Source: an uncultured Rikenellaceae bacterium | GTDB lineage: Bacteria; Bacteroidota; Bacteroidia; Bacteroidales; VadinHA17 | Direction of reading: 5' to 3' | Assembly: GCA_964642615.1 (NCBI GenBank) | Contig: CAZXSW010000006.1 | Location: 8,885-72,884, forward strand | Length of the DNA: 64,000 nucleotides | Shown: positions 10,444-50,300 of the stretch, in pieces | Layout: each line of letters opens with the position of its first letter | How positions within the stretch are numbered: position 1 is the stretch's first letter | Program-made: the position numbers and the translations under genes | The notes under the pieces: generated by a model | Databases searched by the model: none | Seen by the model: only the letters and a program-made list of their open reading frames with translations | What the model was told of the DNA's origin: nothing

Positions 10444-11790
10444 TTACTTTCCCAGCCGCCTCCTTATTTTTTCAGCAGCTTCCTCAAATCCGGGTTTGTT
10501 GAGAAGGGCAAACATATTTTTCTTGTAAGCTTCCACACCGGGCTGATCAAATGGATTGACATCGAGAATATAGCCGCTTATCGCACAGGCAATCTCGAAG
10601 AAATATATTAGCTGTCCAATATAAAAAGCGTCAAGCCGGGGCATGTTAACCGCTATTACAGGTACGCCTCCGTCATTATGGGCCAGGGTAGTTCCCGTTT
10701 CGGCCTGACGGTTAATCTCCGACAGGCGTTTCCCGGCAATGTAATTAAGCTGGTCGGAGTCATCGTCCTCATGTGGTATTATAACTTTTTTTGAAATATC
10801 CTTAACTGAGATCATGGTCTCAAAAAGAATTCTCCGGCCTTCCTGGATGTATTGACCGAGGGAGTGCAGGTCAGTGGTAAAGTCGACTGCTGCAGGGAAG
10901 ATGCCTTTACCATCTTTGCCTTCACTTTCGCCAAAGAGCTGTTTCCACCATTCTGATAGGTAGTGAATTTTCGGGGTGAAGCCGACGAGTATTTCTGTTG
11001 TCCGGCCAGCCTGAAGAAGGAGGTTTCTGGCGGCTGCATACATAAGTGCAGGGTTTGTTGAGGCGTCAAGGTTTCTCCTTGTGATCTGTTCCATAGAGCG
11101 GGCTCCTTCTACAAGCATTCTGATATCGTGACCCGCCACGGCAATGGGCAGAAGGCCGGCAGGAGTCAGTACTGAGTATCTGCCGCCGATATCGTCAGGG
11201 ATTACAAAGGTCTCATAATCATTCTGTTTTGCCAGGTTCAGGAGGGCTCCTTTTCCCTTGTCGGTAATTGCAATTATCCTTTTTGAGGCAGCGTCTTTGC
11301 CTATTTTCCTTTCGAGATGCTCCCTGAGTATCCTGAAAGCAATGGCAGGTTCGGTAGTGGTACCCGATTTTGAGATTACAATAATTGAATAGTTACTGTG
11401 ATCGAGTATCTCAGTGAGGTCGGCAAGATAGTCTTCGCATATGTTATGGCCTGCGTAGAGTATGTTGTGGTGCCTGGCCTGAAGCATGCTGATGAAGGTA
11501 TGTGACAGTGCATCGTTCACAGCTCTTGATCCGAGGTATGAACCTCCGATTCCAATGACAACTGTGGTGTCGGATATTGAAGTCAGGCGGGCGGCTGTTT
11601 TCTCAATCTTCTCAAGCTGGGGCAGAATATCACCGGGCAGTGACAACCATCCCAGGAAATCGCTACCTGCTCCGCTACCCTCATTCAGTGTAACAATATG
11701 TCTCGAAGCTTTCTGGGCCAGGGCCATTATTTCTTCGGGTGCAACGAACGATTCTGTATTCCCAAGGTCAACGCTTATGTTCTCTTTCAT
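10444..11790 (-). CDS. pgi: Glucose-6-phosphate isomerase
   Basis: 448 aa with the motifs ISKSGTTTEP, GGRYSVLT and GESEGK typical of PGI. Confidence 0.93.
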   Translation of the reverse strand: MKENISVDLGNTESFVAPEEIMALAQKASRHIVTLNEGSGAGSDFLGWLSLPGDILPQLEKIEKTAARLTSISDTTVVIGIGGSYLGSRAVNDALSHTFISMLQARHHNILYAGHNICEDYLADLTEILDHSNYSIIVISKSGTTTEPAIAFRILREHLERKIGKDAASKRIIAITDKGKGALLNLAKQNDYETFVIPDDIGGRYSVLTPAGLLPIAVAGHDIRMLVEGARSMEQITRRNLDASTNPALMYAAARNLLLQAGRTTEILVGFTPKIHYLSEWWKQLFGESEGKDGKGIFPAAVDFTTDLHSLGQYIQEGRRILFETMISVKDISKKVIIPHEDDDSDQLNYIAGKRLSEINRQAETGTTLAHNDGGVPVIAVNMPRLDAFYIGQLIYFFEIACAISGYILDVNPFDQPGVEAYKKNMFALLNKPGFEEAAEKIRRRLGK

Positions 11791-11821
11791 GGTTGTAATT
11801 ATGTTAATGCTATCCTTACGG

Positions 11822-11829
11822 CAAAGGTA
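11822..11829 (-). promoter_or_regulatory. Candidate -7 promoter element TAnnTTTG (TACCTTTG on the - strand) for pgi
   Basis: The + strand reads CAAAGGTA. It lies 31 nt upstream of the pgi ATG (11790) and immediately downstream of the preceding terminator. Confidence 0.4.
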
Positions 11830-11831
11830 AG

Positions 11832-11864
11832 AAAAAAGCCGTCCGGACTGATCCGGACGGCTTT
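11832..11864 (-). terminator. Rho-independent terminator after the DUF2807-like gene
   Basis: Perfect 13 bp stem AAAGCCGTCCGGA / TCCGGACGGCTTT with a 4 nt loop. Read on the - strand, the hairpin is followed by TTTTTTC. Confidence 0.75.
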
Positions 11865-11897
11865 CAGGTAGGGATAAAATATGTAAAACTGAAGAAA

Positions 11898-12617
11898 CTA
11901 TCTCCTGTGGATTCCTCCTGCGCTTGACGAATGTGCGTTCACATATTCAGGGTTTCCCCTGTAGTTAATGCTTCCGGCACTGGATGCCCTCGCAGAGAGT
12001 TTTTTTGTAACATTTATATCGGCATCGCCGGCACTTGAGACCGATACGTCGGCTTCCCCGACCTCGAGGTTAATGGCATTCAGATCTCCAGCGCTGCTCA
12101 GATCTGCCTTAAGCAACCTGGCTTCGCCGGAAAGAGTTACATCGCCTGAGCTGCTAATGTCGACATCAATCTCTTCGGCTGTTACATCGAGGTTTATGTC
12201 TCCTGCGCTGCTGGCCGAGATCCTAAGCCTGTCAGACCTTATAAGCGTTTCTCCTGTCACATCGCCGGCACTGGTTGCCGATACCGACCTTATCTCTTTC
12301 ATTGTGACATAAACCCTTTTCTGTTCGGCTTTCCTTATTGTAACATCCGTACGGATCTGCAAAACCCCATCCCTCACTTCGGTAATTATATAGTCATGGA
12401 GATTCTCATCAGCTTCAACTATCACTGATTCCCGTTCGCCCTGCCTGAGGTAAACGTCTATGCCTGAACTGACCCTTACTCCGGTGAAGTTTCTGATATC
12501 CCTCTGGTCCTTCACCACATGTCCGTTGCCGTAGACAGTCCTAAGGAACTGGGCACCGGCGCCGGTTGTGATAACCGTAAGAAGGATGGCTGTTGTAAAT
12601 AGTTTTAGACTTTTCAT
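11898..12617 (-). CDS. Secreted DUF2807 / GIN-domain (adhesin-head-like beta-helix) protein
   Basis: 239 aa with a signal peptide (MKSLKLFTTAILLTVITTGAGAQ). The motif S-S-A/S-G-D-V/I/L recurs about every 20 residues, typical of the DUF2807 beta-helix. Confidence 0.7.
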   Translation of the reverse strand: MKSLKLFTTAILLTVITTGAGAQFLRTVYGNGHVVKDQRDIRNFTGVRVSSGIDVYLRQGERESVIVEADENLHDYIITEVRDGVLQIRTDVTIRKAEQKRVYVTMKEIRSVSATSAGDVTGETLIRSDRLRISASSAGDINLDVTAEEIDVDISSSGDVTLSGEARLLKADLSSAGDLNAINLEVGEADVSVSSAGDADINVTKKLSARASSAGSINYRGNPEYVNAHSSSAGGIHRR

Positions 12618-13829: not shown

Positions 13830-15524
13830 TTAATAAGTATCTCTTTTCAGGTAATAGACGGTACGTTCACCATTTCTGAAGGCTACAACAAAAGCCTGGT
13901 TGTAACCAAGTTTTCTCATTATGTTCTGGAGGGCCCTGGCTTCGGCAAGGGTGTCGAATTCTCCTACAGTAGTCCTGTAAGCACCCCCGTAGAAATATCC
14001 GTAAGTTTTATATCTGTTGCCTTCGATTATTACCTCAATGCTTTCCTTTGGCGTCATGCTGGCCGAGAACTGTACCCTGTATATAACCCCTTCAATTATC
14101 TCACTGCTGTTTGTGAGATAAATGGCATTTTCCTCGTTAACCCCGGCTTCAGCAGAAGGCTCAGCTGCGGCAACAGTCTTGCCGGAAGAAGGTGTTTCAG
14201 TAACCCGGGCTGTAGTGGTTCTTTCGGGTTCGGGAGGCAGCTTTACCTCAGCAAGAGGCAGATGGGCAAGGGGCTGTTCAGCCACAGCCTCTTCCTTTTT
14301 CTTCATATCTGCTTCGTCTTCCTTAACTACACTTATCTCCTCAACTTCAACCATATCTGTGATTTCTGACACTTCATCGGCATTTGCTAAAGTAACAGGC
14401 TGTTCAATAACCTTTATCAACTCAGGATATTCGACAGGCTGCCGGAGTGAATAGGCAATCTTTTTTTCTCCCGGGCTCTCATCCCTTATAATCATTTCAG
14501 TAATAAGCCCTGTCAGATCCTTATCTCCGGAGGCCTGAGCAGAGGGATCAGGAACCATCTTCATAAGGTTAATGCCATTGGCAACGGTGTTGTCCCTTAC
14601 AGTGAAAAAAGCAGTTTCCCGGCCTATGTTATCAATCCTGAAAGCTATGTCGTCGCCCGCGGTATTCACCCTGTCAGTGAGGTTCACAGCTTCAAACCAG
14701 TTAGTTCCGTCGAGTACAGCTATGTAGATATCATAGCCTCCTGAGCCACCGGTTTTGTCAGAGGAGAAATAGAGGTTGTTCCTGGCGTCGAGGAAAGGAT
14801 ACATCTCATTCCCGTACGAATTTATCTCTGCCCCGAGGTTTCTGGGTTCTGACCAGGCATCACCCTCCCTGAAGGAGATGAAGAGGTCCATCCCTCCGTT
14901 GGTTCCTGCCATGTCGGAGGAGAATACCATAAACGAACCATCAGATGACAGGGCAGGATGAGTAAATGTACTTCCGTCGTTACAGAAGCTGAGTGGTTTT
15001 CCGCGACCTGTCCAGTCAATCTGCCCCGAGGCTGTCAGTCTGACAGCTGCCTCATATATCTTTTCGGGCCTTCGGCGCGACGCTTTTGCGGTGTAATATA
15101 ACCTTGTGAAGTCATTGCTTATAGTTACGGCATCAGCCGGGTAAGGAAAATCTCTGGCAGGAGAAAAAATATTGGTTCCCGCAAATGCAATCTCTCCGGG
15201 CAGAGCAGTGTATGCCTGTATCTTTCCGAAAGAGACATGAGGACTTATCATCTTCTCTTCCATCCTTGAATCGGCAAGGAACAGTATTCTGTTACCTATA
15301 AACTGGATACCGCTTGAAGGGGGAATTATCCTGATATCGGCCGTATCTATTCTTACCGGCTTTTGAGACACTGGTTCCTGGTCTGCGGATTCAGGTACTG
15401 ACATGTCTGAAAAAGAAGCTGGTAATCTCCCGGGGTACAGGGCACCGGCCGCACTGCCGGCTGAAAGTGCCATCAGCAGCAAAGAGAAGAGTTTTACTTT
15501 TATATTTTGTAAAAGCATCACCAT
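13830..15524 (-). CDS. Secreted PD40/TolB-like beta-propeller repeat protein with an acidic linker and a C-terminal SPOR-like domain
   Basis: 564 aa with a signal peptide. It carries PD40-type repeats (FSSDMAGTNGGMDLFIS, YFSSDKTGGSGGYDIYIA). The C-terminal segment YRVQFSAS...AYRTTVGEFDTLAEARALQNIMRKLGYNQAFVVAF resembles SPOR. Its start overlaps the upstream PorP-like gene stop by 7 nt. Confidence 0.6.
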   Translation of the reverse strand: MVMLLQNIKVKLFSLLLMALSAGSAAGALYPGRLPASFSDMSVPESADQEPVSQKPVRIDTADIRIIPPSSGIQFIGNRILFLADSRMEEKMISPHVSFGKIQAYTALPGEIAFAGTNIFSPARDFPYPADAVTISNDFTRLYYTAKASRRRPEKIYEAAVRLTASGQIDWTGRGKPLSFCNDGSTFTHPALSSDGSFMVFSSDMAGTNGGMDLFISFREGDAWSEPRNLGAEINSYGNEMYPFLDARNNLYFSSDKTGGSGGYDIYIAVLDGTNWFEAVNLTDRVNTAGDDIAFRIDNIGRETAFFTVRDNTVANGINLMKMVPDPSAQASGDKDLTGLITEMIIRDESPGEKKIAYSLRQPVEYPELIKVIEQPVTLANADEVSEITDMVEVEEISVVKEDEADMKKKEEAVAEQPLAHLPLAEVKLPPEPERTTTARVTETPSSGKTVAAAEPSAEAGVNEENAIYLTNSSEIIEGVIYRVQFSASMTPKESIEVIIEGNRYKTYGYFYGGAYRTTVGEFDTLAEARALQNIMRKLGYNQAFVVAFRNGERTVYYLKRDTY

Positions 15525-35421: not shown

Positions 35422-38055
35422 ATGGAAGAACAGGAATTTGATATTGAAAGACCTGAAGATAAAGAAGAAATGACCCCGGATGCAGGCCAGGGCATCTTTC
35501 ATTCCCTTACTGCACTCTCGGGGATGTACCAGGACTGGTTCCTTGATTATGCTTCTTATGTCATTCTTGAACGTGCCGTACCCCATCTGAACGACGGGCT
35601 GAAACCCGTTCAGAGAAGGATTCTTCATTCCATGAAACGGATGGATGACGGAAGGTTCAACAAGGTGGCCAACATAATCGGCCACACAATGCAGTTTCAT
35701 CCTCACGGTGATGCTTCGATAGGAGATGCACTTGTTCAGCTTGGACAGAAGGACCTTCTTGTTGAAACCCAGGGTAACTGGGGAAACCTTCTGACAGGTG
35801 ACGGATCGGCTGCCCCGCGTTATATCGAGGCACGCCTTTCAAAGTTTGCCCTTGAGGTAGTCTTCAATCCGAAGACCACTGAATGGAAACTCTCGTACGA
35901 CGGCCGAAACAAAGAACCCGTTACCCTTCCTGTTAAATTTCCCCTGCTTCTGGCTCAGGGAGGAGAGGGTATTGCCGTTGGACTTGCCTCCAAGATCCTG
36001 CCCCACAACTTCAACGAACTTATAGATGCCTCAATAGACTATCTCTCAGGAAAGGAATTTGTGCTTTATCCTGACTTCCCGACAGGAGGATTCATTGATG
36101 CATCAAAATATAACGACGGACAGAGAGGCGGGGCGGTTAAGGTAAGGGCGAAAATTGAAAAGATTGACAAAAAGGCTCTGGTCATCACTGATCTGCCTTT
36201 TGGCAAAACAACTACTACTCTCATCGATTCTATAATAAAAGCCAACGAGAAAGGCAAGATCAAAATCAGGAAGATAGATGACAATACCTCGGCGAATGTC
36301 GAGATAGTGATCCATCTGGTACCCGGAGTTTCGCCCGACAAAACCATAGATGCACTCTATGCCTTTACAGATTGCGAATATTCAATCTCTCCCAATACCT
36401 GCGTCATTACAGGCAGTAAGCCCTCGTTCATGGGTGTCTCCGACATCCTGCGCCACTCAGCCGACAATACTGTCAGACTTCTCACGACAGAACTTCAGAT
36501 CAGGGAGAATGAACTGATGGAAGAATGGCATATGTCTTCCCTGGAGAAAATTTTTATTGAAGAGAAAATCTACAGGGATATAGAAGAGTGTGAGACCTGG
36601 GAAGCGGTTATCAAGGCTATTGACAGCGGACTTGAACCCTTTAAGAAGAAACTTTTCAGAGAGGTCACCAGGGAAGATATACTGCACCTGACAGAGATAA
36701 AGATCAAGAGGATATCAAAATATGACTCGAAGAAGGCTGATGAACATATAAGGGATATTGAGACCGGTCTTGAGGAAGTAAGAGCTCACCTTAAAAACAT
36801 TATAGCCTATTCAATAAACTATTTCAGGCAGATAAAGAAAAAATACGGCAAAAACCGGGAGAGAAAGACCGAGATAAGGAATTTTGATACCATCGAAGCT
36901 GCAAAGGTTGTTGCCAACAATGCAAAGCTCTATATCAACTACAAGGAAGGCTTTATTGGCACAGGCCTTAAAAAGGATGAGTTTGTATGCGACTGTTCAG
37001 ATATCGACGATATTATAGTAATTAGGAAAGACGGAGGATATCTTGTTACAAGGATTGCCGAGAAAGTATTTGTGGGTAATGACATCCTTTATGCCCATGT
37101 CTTTTTAAAGAATGACGAACGGACAATATATAATATTGTATACCAGGATGGGAAAGACGGTCCTCTGCTTGTCAAACGCTGTCCTGTTTCCGGACTTACC
37201 CGTGATAAGGAATATAACCTTACAAGGGGAACTCCCGGTTCAAGGATTGTCTATTTCAGTGCCAACCCCAATGGCGAAGCCGAGGTTATAAAGGTACATC
37301 ACAAGCCCAGGGCCAGGCTTAAGAAGCCGGTATTTGAATTCGACTTCGGCATGCTTGCCATCAAGGGGAAATCATCCATGGGTAATATACTGACCCGTAA
37401 TCCTGTACATAAGATAAGCCTTAAGGAGAAAGGCCTTTCAACCCTTGGAGGCAGGAAGATTTGGTTCGATGATGCCGTGTACAGGTTGAATGTTGACGGC
37501 CGGGGAACCTTTCTTGGTGAATTCAGCGCCGACGACAAGATCCAGGTTATTACAAGGGATGGTTTTTTCAGAATAGCAGGCTTCGACCTTTCAAGCCATT
37601 TCGAGGAAAATATACTTCTTATTGAGAAATACAGGCCAGGGAAGGTGTATTCGGTAATTTACTGGGATCAGGAACTTCAGTTCTACTACCTTAAAAGGTT
37701 CACCATTGAGGAATCGGAAAGACCTCTCTGCTTTGTAAGCGAGTTCCCCGGATCAAAACTCATAAGCATCACTGAGGTTGAATACCCCCGCTTTGAGATC
37801 CATTTCGGAGGCAAACACAAGGAACGTGAGACTGAAATAATCGAAGTTGCCGGGTTCATCGGGGTCAAGAGCTACAAGGCCAAAGGGAAGCGTCTTACAA
37901 GCTATATGGTCGATAACATCCAGGAGATAGAACCGGTTGTGAAAAAGGAAGTCAGCATTCCTCCCGCCGGCGGCGAAGATGAAGAAGAGGACAGGGAAAT
38001 TCCTGATATCCAGAAGCAACACGATGATCCGGCACAGATGAAACTGGAGCTGTAA
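35422..38055 (+). CDS. parC: Type IIA topoisomerase subunit A (topoisomerase IV ParC-type)
   Basis: 877 aa with LKPVQRRIL, HPHGD and the catalytic-Tyr motif AAPRYIEARL. Confidence 0.85.
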   Translation: MEEQEFDIERPEDKEEMTPDAGQGIFHSLTALSGMYQDWFLDYASYVILERAVPHLNDGLKPVQRRILHSMKRMDDGRFNKVANIIGHTMQFHPHGDASIGDALVQLGQKDLLVETQGNWGNLLTGDGSAAPRYIEARLSKFALEVVFNPKTTEWKLSYDGRNKEPVTLPVKFPLLLAQGGEGIAVGLASKILPHNFNELIDASIDYLSGKEFVLYPDFPTGGFIDASKYNDGQRGGAVKVRAKIEKIDKKALVITDLPFGKTTTTLIDSIIKANEKGKIKIRKIDDNTSANVEIVIHLVPGVSPDKTIDALYAFTDCEYSISPNTCVITGSKPSFMGVSDILRHSADNTVRLLTTELQIRENELMEEWHMSSLEKIFIEEKIYRDIEECETWEAVIKAIDSGLEPFKKKLFREVTREDILHLTEIKIKRISKYDSKKADEHIRDIETGLEEVRAHLKNIIAYSINYFRQIKKKYGKNRERKTEIRNFDTIEAAKVVANNAKLYINYKEGFIGTGLKKDEFVCDCSDIDDIIVIRKDGGYLVTRIAEKVFVGNDILYAHVFLKNDERTIYNIVYQDGKDGPLLVKRCPVSGLTRDKEYNLTRGTPGSRIVYFSANPNGEAEVIKVHHKPRARLKKPVFEFDFGMLAIKGKSSMGNILTRNPVHKISLKEKGLSTLGGRKIWFDDAVYRLNVDGRGTFLGEFSADDKIQVITRDGFFRIAGFDLSSHFEENILLIEKYRPGKVYSVIYWDQELQFYYLKRFTIEESERPLCFVSEFPGSKLISITEVEYPRFEIHFGGKHKERETEIIEVAGFIGVKSYKAKGKRLTSYMVDNIQEIEPVVKKEVSIPPAGGEDEEEDREIPDIQKQHDDPAQMKLEL

Positions 38056-38573
38056 TGAATTCAGGCAGGATTATATACATTATTGGTTTCATGGGCTGTG
38101 GCAAAACCACCGCGGGAAAAAAGCTGGCAGCTGCCCTTGGTTGGCAATATGCCGACCTTGATAAGCTTATTGAAACAGAGACAGGGAAAAAGATTCATGA
38201 GATATTTGAGGAATCGGGAGAAGCCGGATTCAGGGAGACTGAGACCAGGGCGCTGCTCGGATTAAATCCTGATTCAGATGTTGTGGTTTCGACCGGTGGC
38301 GGAACCCCCTGCTTCAATCAGAATATGGACTTCATGCTTAAGACAGGCCTTACCATCTACCTGAAGCTTAGTCCCGGAGTACTGAAAAGCAGGCTCGAAG
38401 ACTCATCCACTGTCAGGCCCCTGATAAAAGACATAAAAAATGACGATCTTGAGGCTTATATAGCCGGAAAGCTAGGCGAAAGAGAAAAGTGGTACAATAA
38501 GGCAGATCTGATCGTGGATGCCTTTTCATGCACCGGTTCCTGCCTTGCTGATCTTGTTTTGGAGAGACTATAA
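38055..38573 (+). CDS. aroK: Shikimate kinase
   Basis: 172 aa with the P-loop GFMGCGKTT and the STGGG motif. Its ATG overlaps the parC stop (TAATG). Confidence 0.9.
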   Translation: MNSGRIIYIIGFMGCGKTTAGKKLAAALGWQYADLDKLIETETGKKIHEIFEESGEAGFRETETRALLGLNPDSDVVVSTGGGTPCFNQNMDFMLKTGLTIYLKLSPGVLKSRLEDSSTVRPLIKDIKNDDLEAYIAGKLGEREKWYNKADLIVDAFSCTGSCLADLVLERL

Positions 38574-38656: not shown

Positions 38657-40429
38657 ATGGGAAGCGAAGTATCCTCTGACGGATCGGATAATCAAGGTGT
38701 TCCTGATGGCAGGATGTCGGGAGAATGGTTGTTCCGTTCGGCATATTACCGTCTTGTGACCGGGGACCTCAACCTTCTTGACAATACTGTCAATAAATGG
38801 TTTTTCGAACAACTGATTTCATATTCCGTTTCAGCCTGCGATCTGTCACTGCTTCCCGCCCTTAGAAAAATAACAGGTGATAAAAGGCTTGGTGAAAGCC
38901 TCAGGCAAAAAGCATCAGAAGCATCAGAGCTGATTGAGGAATGCGAAAGAAAGACACGCAGGCCGGAGGGACTTTTATATCCTGCCCAGGGCATTTCAGT
39001 GATTGACATGGCAAGGGCCATCCTGGTCGGGACACGCAGGCCCCAGACCACCGAGATACTCCGCTTTCTGAAGGACAAAAGTCCGGGCGTCAGACGTATG
39101 GCACTCTACATAATAGGTAAATTCAGGATATCTGAGATGACCCAGGAGGTATGCATGTGCCTCTCCGACAATGAACTCTCAGGCGATGCGTTCGAAGTTC
39201 TGCAGTCGATGGGCCAGGATACTGGCGCTGATCTCAGGCGATACTACTTTGTTTCTTCAGGGAATCCTTTGATTTCTGCAGCCATTCTGAGGATACTGGG
39301 ATCTTTCTGCTCTGACGAGAATATGGAATTTATATATTCAAGGCTCTGGTCCGGCTCAAGATATATCCGTGAACTGGCCCTTGAACATCTTCTGAAATGC
39401 AGATATGCTGCAAATAAGGAGGAGACCATGAGAGTTGTCCCTCTTCTTTATGAGGTGAGTTCGACAATAGTCTGGTTACTGTCTGTTAAGATTTGTCTTA
39501 ACCGGAATAACAACCCTGAACTTCTGAAAGAGATCAACAGGGAATACAGTCAATGGAACTCCTTTATGGCCGGTTTGCTTAAAATCATCGATACTGAATC
39601 CCTGAAAGCCCTGAGATCGTTAAAGCCCTTTCATCTCTTGCATCAGGATGACAATCCTGCGAAAGAGGTTATTGAAATAATCTCATATATCACAGGCGAT
39701 CCCCAGCCCGAAACAGACGGTTCGTTCCGTGATGCGGCAGACGAGGAAAAGAAGTACCGTAAGCTGAAGAAATACTTTCTTTCTGAAATCCCCGGTTACC
39801 CCTCAGTCGTGGAAGATATTATAAACTGCGACTATAATGTTGCCGGGGTCTGGACAAAGGTGGCTGCGATCAGATCTGTCAGAAGCCTGGAAGACAGCAA
39901 TACAAGGGAATCGGTTGTTGCTCTTATGTTCAGCAGAGAGGCCATTCTCAGGGAAGAGGCTGCACTGCTCATAAGCCGGTATGACAGGGAGAGCTATAAT
40001 AATATTTCGGCTCGGTTGAGAGAGAAGAAGCATACCGACAGAATTGTAAGCGGGGAAATTCATGATGCGGAACTGGTAAGAAGCAAGACTCTTTTCCTTT
40101 CTTCATTCTTCAATGGCATCCATGAAGAAATGATGGTACAGGCTGCAGGGAAAATGCAATTTATAACAGGCGGTAATCCCTTGCCTGGTTTCGTAAGTCC
40201 GGGCTTTGTTCTCTGGAGTTTCAGGGAGGAGGGCGCGAAACCTTATCTTCTCATCTTTCATGAGGGAACGGGTGATGCTGACGAAAGACTTAATCATGTG
40301 AGTGGAGGAACATACAGGTTCCACTACCTGCTTCCGCTTACCGTTGTCCGGGAGTTCTGCATCCTCCATCCTGCTCATGCAAATGATGTTATAAAACTAC
40401 TGGATGTAAATGAAGAATTACTTACATAA
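38657..40429 (+). CDS. Hypothetical HEAT/ARM-like repeat protein with a possible degenerate cyclic-nucleotide-binding-like C-terminal domain
   Basis: 590 aa. HEAT-type helices are present (RFLKDKSPGVRRMALYIIGKF; SRYIRELALEHLLKC; NTRESVVALMFSREAILREEAALLISRY). The last ~120 aa (LFLSSFFNGIHEEMMVQAAGKMQF...VLWSFREEGAKPYLLIFHEGTG) resemble a cNMP-binding barrel by eye, but no clear phosphate-binding cassette is seen. The CDS itself is confident and the function is not. Confidence 0.6.
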   Translation: MGSEVSSDGSDNQGVPDGRMSGEWLFRSAYYRLVTGDLNLLDNTVNKWFFEQLISYSVSACDLSLLPALRKITGDKRLGESLRQKASEASELIEECERKTRRPEGLLYPAQGISVIDMARAILVGTRRPQTTEILRFLKDKSPGVRRMALYIIGKFRISEMTQEVCMCLSDNELSGDAFEVLQSMGQDTGADLRRYYFVSSGNPLISAAILRILGSFCSDENMEFIYSRLWSGSRYIRELALEHLLKCRYAANKEETMRVVPLLYEVSSTIVWLLSVKICLNRNNNPELLKEINREYSQWNSFMAGLLKIIDTESLKALRSLKPFHLLHQDDNPAKEVIEIISYITGDPQPETDGSFRDAADEEKKYRKLKKYFLSEIPGYPSVVEDIINCDYNVAGVWTKVAAIRSVRSLEDSNTRESVVALMFSREAILREEAALLISRYDRESYNNISARLREKKHTDRIVSGEIHDAELVRSKTLFLSSFFNGIHEEMMVQAAGKMQFITGGNPLPGFVSPGFVLWSFREEGAKPYLLIFHEGTGDADERLNHVSGGTYRFHYLLPLTVVREFCILHPAHANDVIKLLDVNEELLT

Positions 40430-43400
40430 TATGTCTTCGGGAAAAACTAAGATATTTTTAAATAATCCCTTTCCGGGTCTCAGGCCTTACAGCACCGATG
40501 AGAAGGAACTGTTTTTCGGCCGTGAGGCTGAAGGTCCTGAGATTCTTACAAAGCTTCTGGCCAACAGATTTCTGGCAGTGACCGGATCCCCGGGAAGCGG
40601 GAAGACCTCACTCATAAACTGCATAATCATTCCTGGTCTGAGAGCGATGACCGGCGCCGGAGAAAAAGGGGTGAAGGTCCTTTATTTCAGTTCCGGAGCT
40701 GACCCCCTTGCAGGACTTGTAAAAGTACTCAGGCGTGAACTTTCAACACTTTGTTCCGACGATGAATGCAACGAACTTACCGGGGAAATAATTAATACAG
40801 TTGAGCCCTCGGCAGAAAAGGTGTTTAGGAAGATCAGCGGTGACGGGAAGACAAAGTTACTTATTATTGCCGATAGGTTTGGCGATATCTTCAGTTCAGA
40901 TATTCAACCCTCACCCGGGGAGAAGCAGGCAGGGAGCATGGCGCTGATAAATATTCTTACGGCTGCTGTGAGTATGGCATCACCGGAAGTGTTCGTTGTG
41001 GTGGCTATGGATGCCGGACAGATTTCTGCCTGTGCACAGTTCAAAGCCTTATCAAGGCTAATTACTGGCAGTAACTATGTTGTTCCATGGATGGGCCGCG
41101 ATTATTGCAGGGATGTGGCAGAGAAGCCGGTGATTAAAGCGGGGGCCTTAATTGATGATGAGCTTACATTGGTACTTGCCGGTGATGCCGGGAAGGATCC
41201 GGGAACGCTTCCCCTGGTTCAGCATGCACTTATGAGGACCTGGGAGCAGTGGGAGCAATCGGGCTATCATGGTAATCCTCTTGGGATAACCGACTACAGG
41301 ATTGCCGGCGGGGTAGGATCTTCGGTTTCACTGCACGGAGATGAGATCTACGGGCATCTGGATGAGAATGAAAAACAAATTTGCGAAAAGCTTTTCAAGG
41401 CAATAACCGGTAAAGGAAGTGACAACAGGGCAATACGGCGTCCTCTTTCATTTTCTTCCCTGCAGTCTGTCACAGGCTGTACAGCTGATGAACTTAAAGC
41501 CGTTGCCGGAAGGTTCAGTGATCCATCAGTATCTTTTCTCACTCCGGGATCAGAAGTAGTTCCCGATGGCGATACCATAGTCGACCTTTCATATGAATGT
41601 CTTATAAACAGCTGGGAAAGGCTCAGGAACTGGGTCGATGAAGAAGCAGCATCGGTGAAGGTCTATATGTTTCTGTCCGAGGCTTCCTCACTTTTTCAGC
41701 AGGGGCGCCGGGGCCTGCTTGAACAGCCTGATCTGCAGGCAGCCATTGAATGGAGGAACAGGTATAAACCAGCACTTGGATGGGCGCAGCGATACGATCC
41801 TGCTTTTGAAAGGGCAATGGTTTATCTTAGAACCAGTGAAAAGGAGTATAGTGATAAAGAAAACAGGAAATACCTCCTCCGGAGACAGAAAACAAGAAGA
41901 AACCGTATCCTTTCAGGGATTCTTGGAGGAACAGCGCTACTGGCTTCCATCCTTACCATTTATGCGCTTTTTATGAGATACTCGGCCCGGGACAGGCTGA
42001 GAGAGGCTGAAGCAGGGGTGGTTGAGCTGGCAGCCAGGAAAGATGCAGCCGAGCAGTATGCAGCCATCGTTCTTAAAAACACCGTTGCCACTGACTCCGT
42101 CATTTCGGCTATGACAAGTCATTTTGAAGAGACTCAAAGGCTACTCGATGAAAAAAGCAATATGATCGCCCTTGTCGAAAATGAAATTTCTGCTGAGAGA
42201 GGAATCAGAACCGGAGTGTTGCTACAATACGACTCTGTTGTTAAGGAGAAGAAGATGACGGACAGCAACCTCAGGCAGGTAATAACCGAAAGGGATGAGA
42301 CACGGCGCAGGAGAATGCTCGCCGTTGCCCGTTCCATGTCGCTCAGATCACTTAAGAGTGAAGAACCCATTGACCTGAGAACACTGCTTGCTTACCAGGC
42401 TTATCTGTTCAACAGGAGGAACGACGGACTACAAAATGATGCAGATATTTATCACGGACTTTACCAGGTTGCAAAGGAGAAAGGGCATCCTTACATTGAA
42501 TCGTTCGAGGGACATTCGGGAGAAATTACAGGTATTGCCTTTGTCCCCGGCCGTAAGGAATTTTTTACCTCAGGTACCGATGGCAAGGTAATTAAATGGG
42601 ATATGAACGGAAACAGGACAGGCCTCGAAATCATCTGGTCCGACGGAGATATTGCCGATGTCCTGGCCGTTAGTCCCGATGCAGGCTGGCTGGCCTGCGG
42701 AGGAAGGAACTCCACCATAAGGCTGATACCTGTTGAAGGGACGGGACTTGGTTATGAACTTAAAGGACACAGTGGCAGAATAACCTCGCTTGCCTTTTCA
42801 TATGACGGAGAGTACCTTTATTCCTCAGCCCATGACGGGAAAGTCTTTAAATGGAGCCTTAGGGCAAGGACCTCTACTGATGTTACAACAGGTGAAAAGG
42901 GAATAATATCAGTCGACCTTTCTTTCGACGGAAGAAGTCTTGCAGGGATCACCTCCGACGGAGGAGCTGTGGTATGGGATCAGCAGAACGGAAAGCCGGT
43001 CTTTTCACTTGGGCCTTCTGAAAGAAGAATTACCAGTCTCAGGTTTCAGCCCGGAGGAAACAGACTTGCAGCAGGTTACGATGACGGGCAGGTTGAGATA
43101 TGGGATGCCCGCGATGGGTCGAAGATATGGGAAGCCAGGGCCCATGAAAAAGAGGTTACTGGCATAAGGTTCAACGGAGGTAAATCCCAGATGGCAACGG
43201 CCGGCAGGGATGGGATTATGAAGTTGTGGGATACCGGCCATCCTGCCGGGCTGCCTGTAATATTCAGCGATAACACAGGACCGGTTGTCGCTATCGAATT
43301 CAGCCCTGACGGGAATCTTATAGTTTCGGCGACAGAGTCAGAAAAAGATAATCTGAAGGCAAGGCCTGCTTCAACAGATCTTCTGGCCGGTGATATCTCC

Positions 43401-43520
43401 CGGAAGTTAACAAGGAACTTTACCCGTGGCGAATGGATGGCATATGTGGGTGATGATATTGAATATGAAGAGACTGTCAGCAGGTCTGATTATAATATAC
43501 TGATAAAAGAATTAAAGTAG
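40410..43520 (+). CDS. STAND-type P-loop NTPase (FFGRE motif + Walker A) - hydrophobic helix - coiled coil - 7-bladed WD40 repeat protein
   Basis: 1036 aa. The motif order is PFPGLRPYSTDEKELFFGRE, then Walker A GSPGSGKTS (nt 40584-40610), then Walker-B-like LLIIADRFGD, then LPLVQHALMRTWE. RRQKTRRNR precedes the helix ILSGILGGTALLASILTIYALFM (nt 41907-41975), which is followed by a charged heptad-like segment. Seven WD40-like blades span nt 42504-43345 (GHSGEITGIAF..DGKVIKWD, GHSGRITSLAF..DGKVFKWS, AHEKEVTGIRF..DGIMKLWD and others). The start overlaps the upstream ORF, and an alternative ATG lies at 40431. Confidence 0.85.
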   Translation: MKNYLHNMSSGKTKIFLNNPFPGLRPYSTDEKELFFGREAEGPEILTKLLANRFLAVTGSPGSGKTSLINCIIIPGLRAMTGAGEKGVKVLYFSSGADPLAGLVKVLRRELSTLCSDDECNELTGEIINTVEPSAEKVFRKISGDGKTKLLIIADRFGDIFSSDIQPSPGEKQAGSMALINILTAAVSMASPEVFVVVAMDAGQISACAQFKALSRLITGSNYVVPWMGRDYCRDVAEKPVIKAGALIDDELTLVLAGDAGKDPGTLPLVQHALMRTWEQWEQSGYHGNPLGITDYRIAGGVGSSVSLHGDEIYGHLDENEKQICEKLFKAITGKGSDNRAIRRPLSFSSLQSVTGCTADELKAVAGRFSDPSVSFLTPGSEVVPDGDTIVDLSYECLINSWERLRNWVDEEAASVKVYMFLSEASSLFQQGRRGLLEQPDLQAAIEWRNRYKPALGWAQRYDPAFERAMVYLRTSEKEYSDKENRKYLLRRQKTRRNRILSGILGGTALLASILTIYALFMRYSARDRLREAEAGVVELAARKDAAEQYAAIVLKNTVATDSVISAMTSHFEETQRLLDEKSNMIALVENEISAERGIRTGVLLQYDSVVKEKKMTDSNLRQVITERDETRRRRMLAVARSMSLRSLKSEEPIDLRTLLAYQAYLFNRRNDGLQNDADIYHGLYQVAKEKGHPYIESFEGHSGEITGIAFVPGRKEFFTSGTDGKVIKWDMNGNRTGLEIIWSDGDIADVLAVSPDAGWLACGGRNSTIRLIPVEGTGLGYELKGHSGRITSLAFSYDGEYLYSSAHDGKVFKWSLRARTSTDVTTGEKGIISVDLSFDGRSLAGITSDGGAVVWDQQNGKPVFSLGPSERRITSLRFQPGGNRLAAGYDDGQVEIWDARDGSKIWEARAHEKEVTGIRFNGGKSQMATAGRDGIMKLWDTGHPAGLPVIFSDNTGPVVAIEFSPDGNLIVSATESEKDNLKARPASTDLLAGDISRKLTRNFTRGEWMAYVGDDIEYEETVSRSDYNILIKELK

Positions 43521-43697
43521 ATATATTTGCAGCGCCGGAAAACATATTCCTGTAGCGGGGAGAGGATCAGTCAGGCCTTAAAACAGGCGGCGGGTTCCCT
43601 GCCGGGTTAATGGATCGTTTCTGGCAAATCAAAATACATGATATGTTGAACCCTTTATAGGGTTTAAGGTTTGAAAAATAGAAACGTATATAAAAAA

Positions 43698-45221
43698 ATG
43701 GAATACAGGAAGACTTTATTAATGATACTCGACGGCTGGGGAATAGGAGATGGTTCTGCCGCAGATGTTATCAGCCAGGTTCCCACGCCGGAACTTACAT
43801 ATTTTAAAAATAACTATCCCAGTTCACGCCTTCTTGCCTCAGGCGAGGACGTCGGACTACCCGACGGGCAGATGGGTAATTCGGAGGTGGGACATCTTAA
43901 TATAGGTGCCGGCCGCATTATCTATCAGGATCTTGTAAAGATAAACAGGGAATGCAAAACAGGGGAGATAAGAAACAACGAGGTACTCACTGAAGCATTA
44001 TCCTACGCAAGGGATAAGGGCAGGCAGGTCCATTTCATGGGACTTCTGTCAGACGGGGGGGTTCATTCCCTTGACAGGCACCTGTACTATCTGTGCGATA
44101 TGACAAAAGAGTATGGAATCAGCAATGTATTTATACATGGCTTTGGCGACGGCAGGGACACCGATCCGAGAAGCGGAGCAGGATATATGAGGAACCTTGT
44201 TGAACATCTTAAGACATCGAATGGCAGGGTGGCCTCTTTTATTGGCAGATACTATGCCATGGACAGGGACAAGAGATGGGAAAGGGTCAGGGAAGCCTAC
44301 GACCTTATTGTAAACGGAAAAGGCACGCCGGTCACTGATGTTGTTGAAGCCATGGAGCAGTCGTACAGGGATGAAGTCACCGACGAGTTCATGAAACCGT
44401 TTGTTGTGGTGGATGATGAAGGAAATCCTGTCGGGAAGCTGAAGGATGGTGATGTTGTAATATTCTTCAACTTCAGAAACGATCGTGCAAAAGAACTCAC
44501 CATTGCTCTTACCCAGAAGGATATGCCGGAGTTCGGTATGAAAACAATGCCGCTTCACTATTGTACAATGACTCCCTATGATGCCACATTCAAGGGTCTG
44601 CATGTAATATATCCAAAGGAAAATGCAGGCAATACAATAGGGGAAGTTATATCAAAAGCGGGCAGAGCTCAGCTGAGGATTGCCGAGACTGAAAAATACG
44701 CCCATGTGACTTTCTTTTTCTCGGGAGGCAGGGAGGAGGTCTTTGAAAACGAAGACAGGATACTAATCCCCTCTCCAAAGGTAGCAACTTACGACCTTCA
44801 GCCCGAGATGAGTGCCTATAGTGTCAGGGATGCTGTTGTAAAGGCTATCGGGACGGGGAAATATGATTTTATATGCCTCAATTTTGCAAACGGTGACATG
44901 GTAGGGCATACGGGTATATATGAAGCTATAAGGAAAGCCGTTGCCACTGTTGATGAGTGTGCTGGTACAGTTATCAGGGCTGCAAGGGCAAACGGATATG
45001 ATGTTCTTGTTATTGCCGACCACGGTAATGCCGACAAAGCTCTTAATGAAGACGGTTCGCCAAATACTGCACATTCGCTTAATCCGGTTCCCTGTATACT
45101 CGTTAGCGATGACTTTAAAAATATTAATGAGGGAATACTTGCCGACGTGGCCCCCACTTTGCTTAATATCATGGGAATTGAAATCCCCGCTGATATGACC
45201 GGAAAGGTCCTTGTCAGCTGA
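43698..45221 (+). CDS. gpmI: 2,3-bisphosphoglycerate-independent phosphoglycerate mutase
   Basis: The track ORF starts at TTG 43671. I prefer the ATG at 43698 ([15 protein letters not shown]). Motifs LDGWG and [13 protein letters not shown] are present, along with the C-terminal ADHGNA. Confidence 0.93.
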
Positions 45222-47381: not shown

Positions 47382-50300
47382 ATGAAGAAACTATTTCTGC
47401 TGATTGTTTTGTTTGTGTTTATGGGTTCTTCGGCCCTGCTGGCACAGACAAGAGTAATTACAGGTACTGTTACCTCTGCAACAGAGGGGGAGGGTGTTAT
47501 ACCCGGGGTATCTGTATTCGTAAAAGGTACCACCATAGGTGCCATAACAGATGTTAACGGACGATATTCAGTCAATGCCCCTGAGTCAGCTTCCACCCTT
47601 GTGTTCTCATTCGTGGGAATGACAACCCAGGAGGTTGATATTGCAGGCAGGGCTGTTATTGATGTTGCATTGACATCAGAACTTATCGGACTGAATGAAG
47701 TTGTTGTAACGGCTCTCGGTATTAAAAGGGAGAAACGTGAGATAACTTATCAGACTCAGAAAGTTGATGTTGAAGAGCTGGCAGTTGCCCAGCCTACAAG
47801 GGCTACTTCGGCTCTCGCAGGTAAAGTGGCCGGTCTTCAGGTCAACGTACAGGATAACAGTGTCAACCCTACCACGCAGATCGTGCTCAGAGGGTTCCGT
47901 TCAATATCTGCCGGAAACCAGGCCCTTATAGTTATTGATGGTGCCGTTTCAACCATTGGAGCTTTTGATGACCTTAACCCCAACGACATCGCCGACATCA
48001 GCGTGCTCAAGGGAGCAACTGCTGCTGCCCTTTACGGCTCGCAGGCCGGTAACGGTGCCATCATAGTTTCAACTAAAAAAGGACAGGCCGGACAGAAGTT
48101 CACAGTTGGTTTGAATTCATCCTATACCTCTGACCAGGTGGCCTACATGCCGAGATTCCAGAGTGAATACGGTACAGGATGGGAAGGAGCTTATGATGCA
48201 ATTGAGAATACCAACTGGGGCCCCAGGTTTGACGGTACTCTTCGACAGATCGGTCCCACTTTCCCCGATGGTTCCTACCAGACAGTTCCTTATGCCCCGG
48301 TAGCGGATAACCTTCTTGAGTTTTTTGACAAGGGACATAACCTTAACAATACGGTATACCTCAGCGGAAGTAATGAAACCAGTAAGTTTTATCTCTCCGC
48401 CGGAAATCAGGCAGCAACGGGTATAGTGCCTAAAGATAAATATGGACGAAATACCTTCAGGGCCAATGCCAGTAAGACACTTGGTGATGTTGAAGTATCA
48501 GTAAACGCCAGCTATTTCAATGATAAAACAGAAGAAGCAGGTGACTATATGGGTGATCAGGACAGACCGCTTTACTGGTTCCTTCTCAATACTTCGGCAA
48601 ATATCCCTCTGAGCAGATATCAGAACTGGAGGACAGATAAATATTCGACTCCGAGCGGATACTACAACGGATACTATGAGAACCCTTATATGAACATCGA
48701 TACCAACAGGGATACTGACTTTTCAAACAGGATCAATGCCAACGTTCAGGTAACATGGGACATAACTGATTTCCTTAACCTGACTGCCAGAACAGCTGTC
48801 AACAACAGCTGGGGTCACGGCAAATACTGGAGAAAGGCAATAACCTTTGATACCGATATCAAACCTACAGGAAGCGATATTTCTTCATATGTTACTGACA
48901 TGGAGTTCCAGAATTCTGAATATGTATCTGACCTCCTTCTTACAGGAAATTTTAACTTCCTTAATAATTTCTCTCTTAAAGCCATCCTTGGTGGTACAAA
49001 CCGTACCTCTAAGTACAGGGATACCTACATTACTGCTCTTAACCTGAGCATTCCTGATTTCTATGATATCTCAAACGGAACAGGTGCTTTGCAGGGCCGT
49101 TATGATTATTACGATGGAGCTAAAGCTGTTTATGCGGATGTTGCTGATGCGCAGGACTATATCAACTATGGCTTCTTTGGTGACTTCACCCTTGGCTTTA
49201 ACAACTATCTCTTCCTTAACTTCTCGGGAAGGAATGACTGGACTTCAACTCTGGGGAAAGGCAATAACAACTATTTCTATCCGGCGTTCGGACTTTCTTT
49301 TGTTCTGACCGATGCAATCGAAGGACTCAAAAATAATAACATTCTTTCATATGCTAAGGTTACTGCAAGTAACTCGACGGTTTATAATGACCTTGCTCCC
49401 TACCAGATAAATGAAAGATTCAGCAAGCATGGTTCTTTCCCATTCGGAACTATCGGAGGATTTGAACTGGGCGGGACTACCGTTGATGCAAACATCAAAA
49501 AGGAAAGGCTCAATACCACGGAGGTTGGTCTTAACCTGGGTTTCCTTAAGTCAAGGATTTTACTGGATGCTTCTTATTATGTAACAAAGACCACTGACCT
49601 TATTACGAATACAACACCTTCAATAACTTCAGGTGCAACCAATTTCCTTACAAACATAGGAGAACTGAAAGGCACAGGTTTTGAACTCACCATTGGTGGA
49701 ACAATTCTCAACTACAGAAAACTCTCATGGGATATGAGTCTTAACTATACCACCAACACTACCGAAGTTATTTCAATCAAGGAAGGTCTTGATGAGATTT
49801 CACTTCGTTCTACAGGTCAGTATGGAATCTATGCTGTTGTAGGCGAGGCTTTCCCGCAGATCAAAGCCAATACATATGTAAGGGATCCGCAGGGTAGGAT
49901 TGTTATTGATCCCAAAACCGGATGGCCGAAAACCAATGCAGAACTTTCAAATATGGGAAGAACTCTTCCTCCTCATATCTTTGGTCTGAATACGGCACTT
50001 AGATTAGCCGGGTTCACACTTTCAACAACTCTTGACTACAGGACAGGCCATGTATTCTATGAGCAGGGTTCCGATGCTATGGAATTCACAGGAAGATCCA
50101 TGGAGTCTGTTTCTGCCAACAGGCAGGATTTTGTAATTCCGAATTCTGTTGTTGAAGTAAGCGATGGAGTATTTGTTGAAAACACAAACATCCCAATTGC
50201 AAACGGTCGTCAGAGCTACTGGACAGACGTTTACAACGATGTTAAGGAGAATTATGTTAAGGACGCCACTGCATTCAAAATAAGGGAACTTGCTCTTTCT

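Follow-up and report, generated by a model that had tools for sequence, protein, structure and literature searches.

A HEAT-repeat protein paired with a membrane-spanning STAND NTPase: candidate core of an envelope-associated signalling cassette in Bacteroidota

Two large, adjacent open reading frames (ORFs) lie between aroK and gpmI in a 64,000-nucleotide stretch of contig CAZXSW010000006.1 from an uncultured Rikenellaceae bacterium (this whole stretch is referred to below as the window). What do these genes, here termed ORF A and ORF B, encode, and do they belong together? An initial annotation, made from the letters of the sequence, described a HEAT-repeat protein followed by an effector-less STAND NTPase with WD40 repeats, and proposed a sensor or conflict module. 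We examined the pair by homology and structure prediction, by comparison of gene neighbourhoods and by analysis of selection. The reading that we favour, and to which we give an even chance of being correct, is that Bacteroidota have a conserved signalling cassette associated with the cell envelope, and that ORF A and ORF B together are its minimal core and still function; in it, B would be a transmembrane STAND switch and A its HEAT adaptor. The argument starts from the following features.

[quoted passage not shown]
40431 to 43520, + strand: ORF B, 1029 aa from ATG 40431 or 1036 aa from ATG 40410; nSTAND1 NTPase, transmembrane (TM) helix, helical stalk and WD40 propeller.
40410 to 40433, + strand: A/B junction, with the final codons of A, its TAA at 40427-40429, and the alternative B starts ATG 40410 and ATG 40431.

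Both ORFs are intact. Their coordinates and sizes, their placement between aroK and gpmI and the two possible starts of B were all as first described, as read from the ORF list and the junction sequence (...CTT ACA TAA t ATG TCT...). ATG 40410 lies 20 nt within A, and ATG 40431 lies 1 nt beyond A's TAA; the ORFs are 1 nt apart if B starts at the latter. In the long form of B, the residues before M8 are not conserved among orthologues, and on a contig of 95% identity, independent gene calling puts the start of B 1 nt after the stop of A (1029 aa). Therefore, ATG 40431 is the likelier of the two and is likely the true start of B.

The first question was what kind of protein A is. Two regions were delimited.

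38711 to 40066, + strand: HEAT/ARM-type, all-alpha solenoid, A residues 19-470, from predicted secondary structure and Foldseek.
40076 to 40426, + strand: truncated cyclic-nucleotide-binding-like domain, A residues 474-590, with four strands and no phosphate-binding cassette.

The Pfam HEAT_2 match of A was below threshold (24.8 versus 27.7 bits). An AlphaFold2 model based on 90 homologues (predicted local distance difference test [pLDDT] 86.6, predicted template-modelling score 0.85) consisted of a solenoid and a small alpha/beta C-terminal domain. Foldseek comparison of whole A with the PDB returned only generic HEAT/ARM proteins (PP2A-A, karyopherins, AP-beta, alphaRep), with E values of at least 1.6e-3 and template-modelling scores below 0.25. 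When the C-terminal domain (residues 451-590) was modelled separately (pLDDT 78.4), the top 50 Foldseek matches were all cNBDs and were weak (E 9e-3 to 0.1, template-modelling scores 0.3-0.44). The models and these weak matches agree with the HEAT-like repeats and degenerate cNBD-like C-terminus that had been seen in A by eye. PF00027 had no Pfam match in the window's A; by alignment, about 18 barrel residues are missing and the GE...R[ST]A motif is not present, and a canonical phosphate-binding cassette was not evident even in distant members of the A family. A STAS-like fold was also considered for this domain, owing to a PP2C gene in some related loci (class 3, below), and was dropped because all Foldseek matches were cNBDs.

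A does not belong to an orphan family, as homology searching showed. About a third of 94 matches were proteins of ~1014 aa annotated as 'ATP:ADP antiporter, AAA family', and A aligns with the C-terminal ~575 aa of such ~1014-aa NTT/MFS-HEAT fusions (31-37% identity over 95-99% of A). In the fusions, the first ~440 residues contain 11-12 hydrophobic segments, and the fused Bacteroidales proteins P0082 and P0094 exceed the Pfam threshold for TLC (NTT, PF03219), scoring 33-34 bits where the cut-off is 21. An A-family profile matched 1444 representative proteins at E <= 0.001, including fusions of ~1030-1075 aa. The distant proteins P0340 and P0355 combine MFS-like and HEAT_2 regions with a genuine cNMP_binding domain (PF00027, 28.5-29.7 bits, cut-off 27.5) in the place where A has its small domain. 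A itself is without a TM domain, and tblastn with the fused N-terminal domain found no transporter domain in the window. By homology, A is the soluble HEAT-cNBD tail of NTT-HEAT-cNBD fusions, with the transporter domain lost in the window's lineage; because the NTT/TLC domain is absent, we regard A as a derived fragment rather than a full member of that family. Many stand-alone A proteins (P0010, P0028, P0034, P0050 and P0053 among them) open with M-[GAR]-x-[RK]-x-[FLY]-x-L-P, which aligns with the first residues of the fusions, MRDKLFSLLG. This alignment may reflect an in-frame deletion of the TM domain that kept the original start, or it may be an artefact. The window's A does not have this N-terminus.

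ORF B was divided into the following features.

40467 to 41711, + strand: nSTAND1 NTPase module (predicted cytoplasmic), B residues 20-434; PF20703 with E 1.7e-65 over profile positions 1-376 of 379.
40584 to 40610, + strand: Walker A, GSPGSGKTS, residues 59-67; family consensus G[AS]SGSGKSS.
40857 to 40886, + strand: Walker B region, LLIIADRFGD, residues 150-159; family consensus hhhhDQFEE.
41907 to 41975, + strand: single TM helix, B residues 500-522.
41976 to 42305, + strand: charged, poorly conserved helical stalk (predicted periplasmic), B residues 523-632.
42306 to 43364, + strand: conserved helical linker and WD40 beta-propeller (predicted periplasmic sensor), B residues 633-985.

The PF20703 score of B, 222.6 bits against a Pfam cut-off of 27.1, places it in the nSTAND1 clade and bears out the proposal that B is a STAND NTPase. 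The motifs on which that proposal was built, NPFPGLRPYSTDEKELFFGRE, GSPGSGKTS, LLIIADRFGD and LPLVQHALMRTWE, are all present. For a comparison across the family, the window protein was aligned with 119 of 120 listed full-length orthologues (42-93% identity). Walker A residues G59, G64, K65 and S67 are invariant among the 120 aligned sequences, and the Walker B residue D155 is kept in 120 of 120, the window's included. The family Walker B consensus is hhhhDQFEELF; the window's DRFGD amounts to Q156R, E158G and E159D. E158 is found in 115 of the 120 sequences, and Gly158 only in five, which are the window's sub-lineage. Sequence and profile searches of the PDB with the B NTPase returned no solved nSTAND1 relative, only P-loop segments of ABC ATPases and UvrA.

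Toward the C-terminus, WD40 repeats matched with E 6.4e-40 over residues ~700-985, and several beta-propeller families matched in Pfam. The WD40 propeller first described stands; six repeats were scored over its ~285-aa region, as opposed to the seven blades counted by eye. The 51-aa tail past the WD40 region (~985) had no domain match. Because the nSTAND1 match starts at residue 20, the WD40 region reaches ~985 and the tail is domain-free, B is without an effector, as had been thought.

Where the WD40 sensor would be located depends on the hydrophobic helix. A 19-mer with a Kyte-Doolittle value above 1.6 occurs in 120 of 120 aligned B sequences, at positions 465-514. The Arg-rich stretch and 23-aa hydrophobic helix noted earlier were recovered in the window as RRQKTRRNR followed by residues 500-522. 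The 15 residues on the N-side of the helix contain a mean of 6.2 K+R (net +5.8), compared with 4.4 K+R (net +2.4) on the C-side. A distant orthologue (L133) also has the TM helix, with KRKLQRARR before it and FYQKSEADKQ after it, and shows a sharper charge contrast. Since the NTPase requires cytosolic nucleotide, B probably has an N-in/C-out topology, with the stalk and WD40 propeller in the periplasm. Given the single TM helix, the WD40 sensor of B most likely lies in the periplasm and is not a cytosolic one of the Avs type. The stalk has 0.8% Pro+Gly and 64% helix-forming residues (AEKRQLM), and is 89-110 aa long. It had been called a charged, heptad-like segment: a helix-rich, Pro/Gly-poor segment of ~104 aa was indeed found, but heptad periodicity was not shown by a crude autocorrelation test. 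As that test was negative or uninformative, we use the term helical stalk rather than coiled coil.

Is the pairing of A and B particular to the window? One genome per GTDB species was scanned; this gave 134 confirmed loci of the A family, and 80 of them were kept (L001-L080). By tblastn, the order in the kept loci is parE-parC-aroK-A-B, usually followed by gpmI. B lies downstream of A in 74 of the 74 loci that extend far enough, and, with all classes taken together, one unbroken ORF encodes it in 66 of the 71 loci having both NTPase and WD40 matches. All but one of the kept loci (79/80) are labelled Bacteroidales, Bacteroidia, Bacteroidetes or Rikenellaceae. The exception, L049 (JBLNAO010000261.1), is labelled Chloroflexota; on its 9-kb contig lies a class-3 cassette typical of Bacteroidales (A, PP2C gene, B, outer membrane protein [OMP] and lipoprotein), and the contig is probably mis-binned rather than a cross-phylum occurrence.

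The kept loci fall into three classes. Class 1, to which the window belongs, has a stand-alone A of 575-596 aa, and the ATG of B is at most 13 nt past the stop of A in 32 of 37 loci. In class 2, an NTT-fused A is followed by B and then gpmI. Class 3 consists of an NTT-fused A, a TM-sensor-HAMP-PP2C (SpoIIE) gene, B, an OMP_b-brl_2 protein with a signal peptide, and a lipoprotein with propeller-like repeats. In a neighbour-joining tree of parC+parE, the fused classes branch first and are intermixed, and class 1 is a derived clade. One class-2-like locus, L073, has short remnants of two genes, HAMP-PP2C (~11748-11972; 42% identity across 86 aligned positions) and OMP (~15170-15331; 57% across 54 aa), and its B is split. 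As class 1 is derived on the tree and L073 holds these remnants, we read the state in the window as the product of stepwise loss. By this comparison of sequences it is the fused form that branches earlier, and the transporter domain was lost in the clade of the window. The stepwise reduction (from 6-7 genes to 5, to 2, and to 2 without the transporter) marks the HEAT module and the STAND protein as the indispensable unit.

These observations leave room for an alternative in which adjacency is mere inherited synteny and A and B are independent, with A regulating another transporter, for example, and B acting as a stand-alone membrane receptor. The whole Bacteroidales neighbourhood (parE-parC-aroK ... 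gpmI) is syntenic, so conservation there is by itself no proof of linkage. When metagenomes were scanned with the distant group that bears a cNBD as the seed, the result was 80 loci, 54 of which had at least 2.5 kb downstream and were testable. A B-type gene was present in 42 of the 54, with an NTPase 44-55% identical to that of the class-3 locus L017, and 35 also have an OMP homologue after B; the 12 distant loci without B fit the independence of the two genes. aroK or parC was nearby in only five metagenome loci (four of which carry the cassette) and gpmI in none. Therefore, the A-B association is not explained by synteny alone.

The cassette was also found in the cultured Cytophagales Fulvivirga maritima, Ekhidna lutea and Reichenbachiella versicolor, with different flanks in all three. 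As read from independent gene calls and precomputed Pfam matches, a HEAT_2+cNMP_binding gene (1054-1084 aa) precedes an nSTAND1+WD40 gene (1041-1094 aa) in these isolates. The STAND gene is followed by OMP_b-brl_2, a protein of ~400-460 aa and then one of 2995-5962 aa with Por_Secre_tail. A gene of ~500 aa stands between the A-type and B-type genes in E. lutea (with a faint DUF4062 match) and in R. versicolor (~499 aa, no recorded Pfam match). The conservation of A and B as neighbours that the initial annotation called for surveying is thus seen in genomes, metagenomes and isolates alike. With a pair that recurs in unrelated genomic contexts, that outlasted three successive rounds of gene loss removing all else, that keeps its short stop-start distance in class 1 and whose divergences co-vary (see below), we consider mere synteny quite improbable.

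We next asked whether the pair is still under selection. The ratio of nonsynonymous to synonymous substitution rates (dN/dS) was computed against the 95%-identical contig, at a dS of about 0.17. For A it was 0.137 (HEAT part 0.120, cNBD-like part 0.240) and for B 0.189 (TM and stalk 0.143, linker and WD40 0.198); despite the deviant Walker B, the window's NTPase domain is under purifying selection (dN/dS 0.205). The neighbours had lower values (gpmI 0.071, Rv0495c-family gene 0.081). Across 50 loci, mean pairwise identity was 44% for A, 54% for the B NTPase and 57% for the B WD40 region, versus 85-88% for parC/parE. The divergences of A and B correlated more strongly with each other (Spearman 0.84-0.87) than with that of parC (0.73 for A and 0.60 for B). 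On these sequence comparisons A and B are both functional, fast-evolving and co-varying.

Selection also bears on whether the ORFs are decaying, non-functional leftovers, heading to pseudogenes after the loss of their partners. The progressive reduction of the cassette, the deviant Walker B of the window's sub-lineage and the somewhat looser constraint relative to neighbours (dN/dS 0.14-0.19 versus 0.07-0.08) would suit such decay. However, the window and nearly every class-1 genome have both ORFs in an intact state, B is a single intact ORF in most loci of all classes (the 66 of 71 above), dN/dS is well under 1 in every domain, and the class-1 state persists over a deep clade. We regard decay as very unlikely indeed.

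How might a signalling core of this kind work? B would be placed in the inner membrane, with its NTPase in the cytoplasm and its stalk and propeller in the periplasm. The propeller would bind a periplasmic or envelope cue, which would be relayed across the membrane to the STAND module; this module would then change its nucleotide state and oligomerise. Signalling would run from periplasm to cytoplasm. A would be the direct cytoplasmic partner of B, kept stoichiometric via the stop-start junction, and could serve B as an adaptor, an output scaffold or a keeper of the off state. In the fused relatives, the STAND switch would be coupled to transporter gating. The window's lineage has lost the transporter, and A must therefore, under this proposal, act on B or on a target encoded elsewhere.

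Several points weigh against the proposal of a signalling core. The physical partnership of A and B is deduced from their genes, and the topology of B is deduced from one TM helix and the positive-inside rule, with a C-side flank that is also net positive (+2.4). DRFGD in place of DQFEE may mean that hydrolysis by the window's B is impaired or altered. Members of nSTAND1 have so far been described in conflict systems (PMC8195603). Homology searches found no homologue of the transporter domain, HAMP-PP2C, OMP, lipoprotein or DUF4062 gene in the window, and at 12 of the 54 distant NTT-HEAT-cNBD loci that could be tested, B was absent from the surrounding 10 kb.

Relatives carry further components of the cassette. 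Fuller cassettes have up to five further genes, not all in one locus, and only the soluble module of A together with B is always kept. The HAMP-PP2C sensor gene stands between A and B in L017 (11727-13700) and 18 other class-3 loci, and also in L139, L143, L152, L155 and L156. Its product has two TM helices, a periplasmic domain of ~275 aa, a HAMP domain and a SpoIIE-type PP2C domain, and hints at a phospho-regulatory layer.

A second gene, of ~480-520 aa, occupies the gap between the A-type and STAND genes in 34 metagenome loci in all; examples of the gene are L133 5294-6739 and L163 12331-13842. Homology search found it in neither L001-L080 nor the window. Of three copies scanned, two exceeded the DUF4062 threshold in the central module (27-36 bits; cut-off 24.7), and weak TIR_2 matches occurred at varying positions in all three copies, for which reason we read the gene as three TIR-like modules. 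In Swarozyc, Avs2, Vulcan (DUF4062-HEAT) and Vesta, the TIR-like DUF4062 serves as an NADase (2026 preprints 10.64898/2026.05.01.722283 and 10.64898/2026.09.04.749371). In the alignment of gap-gene products, an invariant Q-N occurs in the stretch where position predicts the catalytic Glu, and this DUF4062 domain may be non-catalytic.

The envelope partners carry a signal peptide or a lipobox. A giant secreted protein is encoded after the lipoprotein gene in L162 (17878-21165), L163 (19828-21255) and L164 (19565-21255), and from ~19339 in L017 and ~18930 in L113. In the three isolates, the giant protein of 2995-5962 aa combines Por_Secre_tail, the sorting domain of the type IX secretion system (T9SS), with PKD, Big_5 or Calx-beta repeats. 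The class-3 and metagenome loci have a very large ORF with a signal peptide after the lipoprotein, with PKD_5, Ig_7 (CHU_C-associated) or Big_5 domains. The cassette may thus be tied to a giant cell-surface adhesin, of which the window retains no trace.

Taken at its widest, this inventory could describe an envelope-spanning, NLR-like pathway. The stalked periplasmic WD40 propeller would monitor the outer membrane or cell surface via the outer membrane barrel, the lipoprotein and the giant T9SS protein, and the STAND switch would act on a HEAT-cNBD module gating an NTT nucleotide/NAD+ transporter, together with a DUF4062/TIR-like NAD+-processing protein. The window's lineage would then hold the sensor-adaptor core only. 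We put this forward as a doubtful extension of the signalling-core reading. If true, the pathway would sense contact, damage or invaders and act on the flux of nucleotides, and would provide the first functional handle on the NTT-HEAT-cNBD family.

The same components could instead be those of an anti-phage or conflict system. B would be an NLR-like sensor that oligomerises and thereby activates effectors in trans. The candidates for these in full cassettes are the NADase-type DUF4062/TIR-like protein, a cNBD-gated NTT transporter or both, which would deplete or leak nucleotides or NAD+; the window would have A left as its adaptor or effector. The nSTAND1 clade was defined in conflict systems (PMC8195603), DUF4062 is a proven NADase effector in the four systems named above, and the DUF4062/TIR-like gene sits between A and B in 34 metagenome loci and E. 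lutea, with the ~499-aa gene of R. versicolor in the same slot. A and B also evolve much faster than their neighbours (44-57% versus 85-88% mean identity).

Against this, no recognisable effector, fused or adjacent, was found in the window, and the invariant Q-N of the gap-gene DUF4062 stands where the catalytic Glu is expected. PADLOC gave no meaningful match for any cassette protein scanned: with PADLOC-DB v2, A had no match and B had only a WD40-region match to HEAT-ARM_XIII and P-loop-level matches to mad8 and mad3; five proteins of distant cassettes (DUF4062/TIR-like, A-like, B-like, HAMP-PP2C and lipoprotein) likewise had none. Searches of NCBIfam returned noise only. A patchy, island-like, mobile distribution was not seen, the pair being at the same aroK...gpmI position in 74 of 74 testable loci. 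The locus is fixed there across the clade, and the correlation of A and B divergence with parC fits vertical descent. No domain has an elevated dN/dS (0.14-0.19 for the two ORFs), the cassette is linked to OMP, lipoprotein and adhesin genes rather than to defence islands, and a periplasmic sensor is atypical of antiviral STANDs. We therefore consider a conflict role unlikely and find the label 'conflict module' unsupported in the window. The sole hint in its favour from gene content is the DUF4062/TIR-like gene of distant relatives, which the window does not have.

The surroundings of the pair in the window are those of a core-gene region.

38055 to 38573: aroK, upstream neighbour of A.
43671 to 45221: gpmI, downstream neighbour of B.

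According to the ORF list, parE, parC and aroK lie upstream of A, which starts 83 nt past aroK; gpmI, the Rv0495c-family gene and an M20 peptidase lie downstream of B, and a SusC-like gene is found at 47382. GC content is uniform over the region. The SusC-like gene and the best-matching genomes assign the window to an uncultured lineage of Bacteroidales. The closest record is L001, labelled an uncultured Rikenellaceae metagenome-assembled genome (95% and 90% amino-acid identity for parE and parC, respectively). No tRNA or Rfam family was found in the window, and scans for sigma-70 promoters and terminators, which are ill-suited to Bacteroidota, were at chance level. The mechanical ORF of gpmI opens at TTG 43671. 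Alignment with homologues begins no earlier than about residue 3-10, and gpmI on the 95%-identical contig was called as 507 aa. The real start is probably ATG 43698 (MEYRKTLL...), and the B-gpmI spacer would therefore widen to about 177 nt.

What the pair adds to current knowledge is best judged against described systems. Because both belong to named families, neither protein is categorically new. The initial annotation knew of no characterised system with the A-B pairing, and we found none described either. Three features appear undescribed in the literature searched, most subscription journals being outside that search: the pairing of A with B, a STAND architecture that spans the membrane, and the cassette in its larger form. 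The NTT-HEAT(-cNBD) family gains a consistent genetic partner, a STAND NTPase, and hence a testable regulatory hypothesis. A STAND/NLR-type switch with a predicted extracytoplasmic repeat sensor would carry the NLR paradigm beyond surveillance of the cytosol to signalling across a membrane. The presence of the cassette in cultured Cytophagales (Fulvivirga, Ekhidna and Reichenbachiella) makes it experimentally accessible. For annotation, membership of nSTAND1 should not by itself be equated with a 'defence system'.

Major, Embley & Williams (2017, Genome Biol Evol, PMC5381601) describe the NTT-HEAT(-cNBD) fusions as a widespread family without a known function, which includes a conserved gene of Chlamydia trachomatis; the NTT-HEAT-cNBD family also occurs in cyanobacteria, Chlamydia and oomycetes. 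Over its full length, A is homologous to the HEAT and C-terminal module of the NTT-HEAT and NTT-HEAT-cNBD fusions. It differs from NTT-HEAT-cNBD fusions in that the window's A has no NTT domain and its cNBD is truncated, with no phosphate-binding cassette. No mention of a downstream STAND gene was found in the accessible part of Major et al. or in the other NTT-HEAT literature searched.

Like the nSTAND1 clade (PF20703) of Kaur, Iyer, Burroughs & Aravind (2021, eLife, PMC8195603), B matches the profile end to end and has the N-terminal PFPGLRPF...FFGRE motif, Walker A and C-terminal WD40 repeats. It departs from that clade in having no N-terminal effector or effector-associated domain, a TM helix between NTPase and repeats, a fixed and vertically inherited locus, an obligate HEAT-cNBD partner and, in the window's copy, DRFGD rather than DQFEE. 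No mention of a transporter partner was found in the relevant nSTAND1 literature consulted.

With Avs1-4 and bacterial NACHT proteins, B shares the general NLR logic, in which a module for NTPase-driven oligomerisation precedes a repeat sensor at the C-terminus. Unlike them, B belongs to another STAND clade, has no fused effector, has a predicted extracytoplasmic sensor, gives no PADLOC match and lies in no variable island. A further comparison is with APAF-1 and the DUF4062-NACHT-WD40 proteins NWD1, NWD2 and TEP1. In human NWD1, NWD2 and TEP1, DUF4062 occurs beside NACHT and WD40 (10.64898/2026.05.01.722283, 10.64898/2026.09.04.749371). The cassette differs from these proteins in being made of separate genes rather than a fusion, in its nSTAND1 rather than NACHT or AP-ATPase NTPase, in its membrane-spanning B and, for the window, in the absence of the DUF4062 gene. 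It resembles NWD1, NWD2 and TEP1 in that the distant relatives have a DUF4062 gene directly upstream of the STAND-WD40 gene, and it has in common with all four, APAF-1 included, the combination of an NTPase with a WD40 propeller as the sensor.

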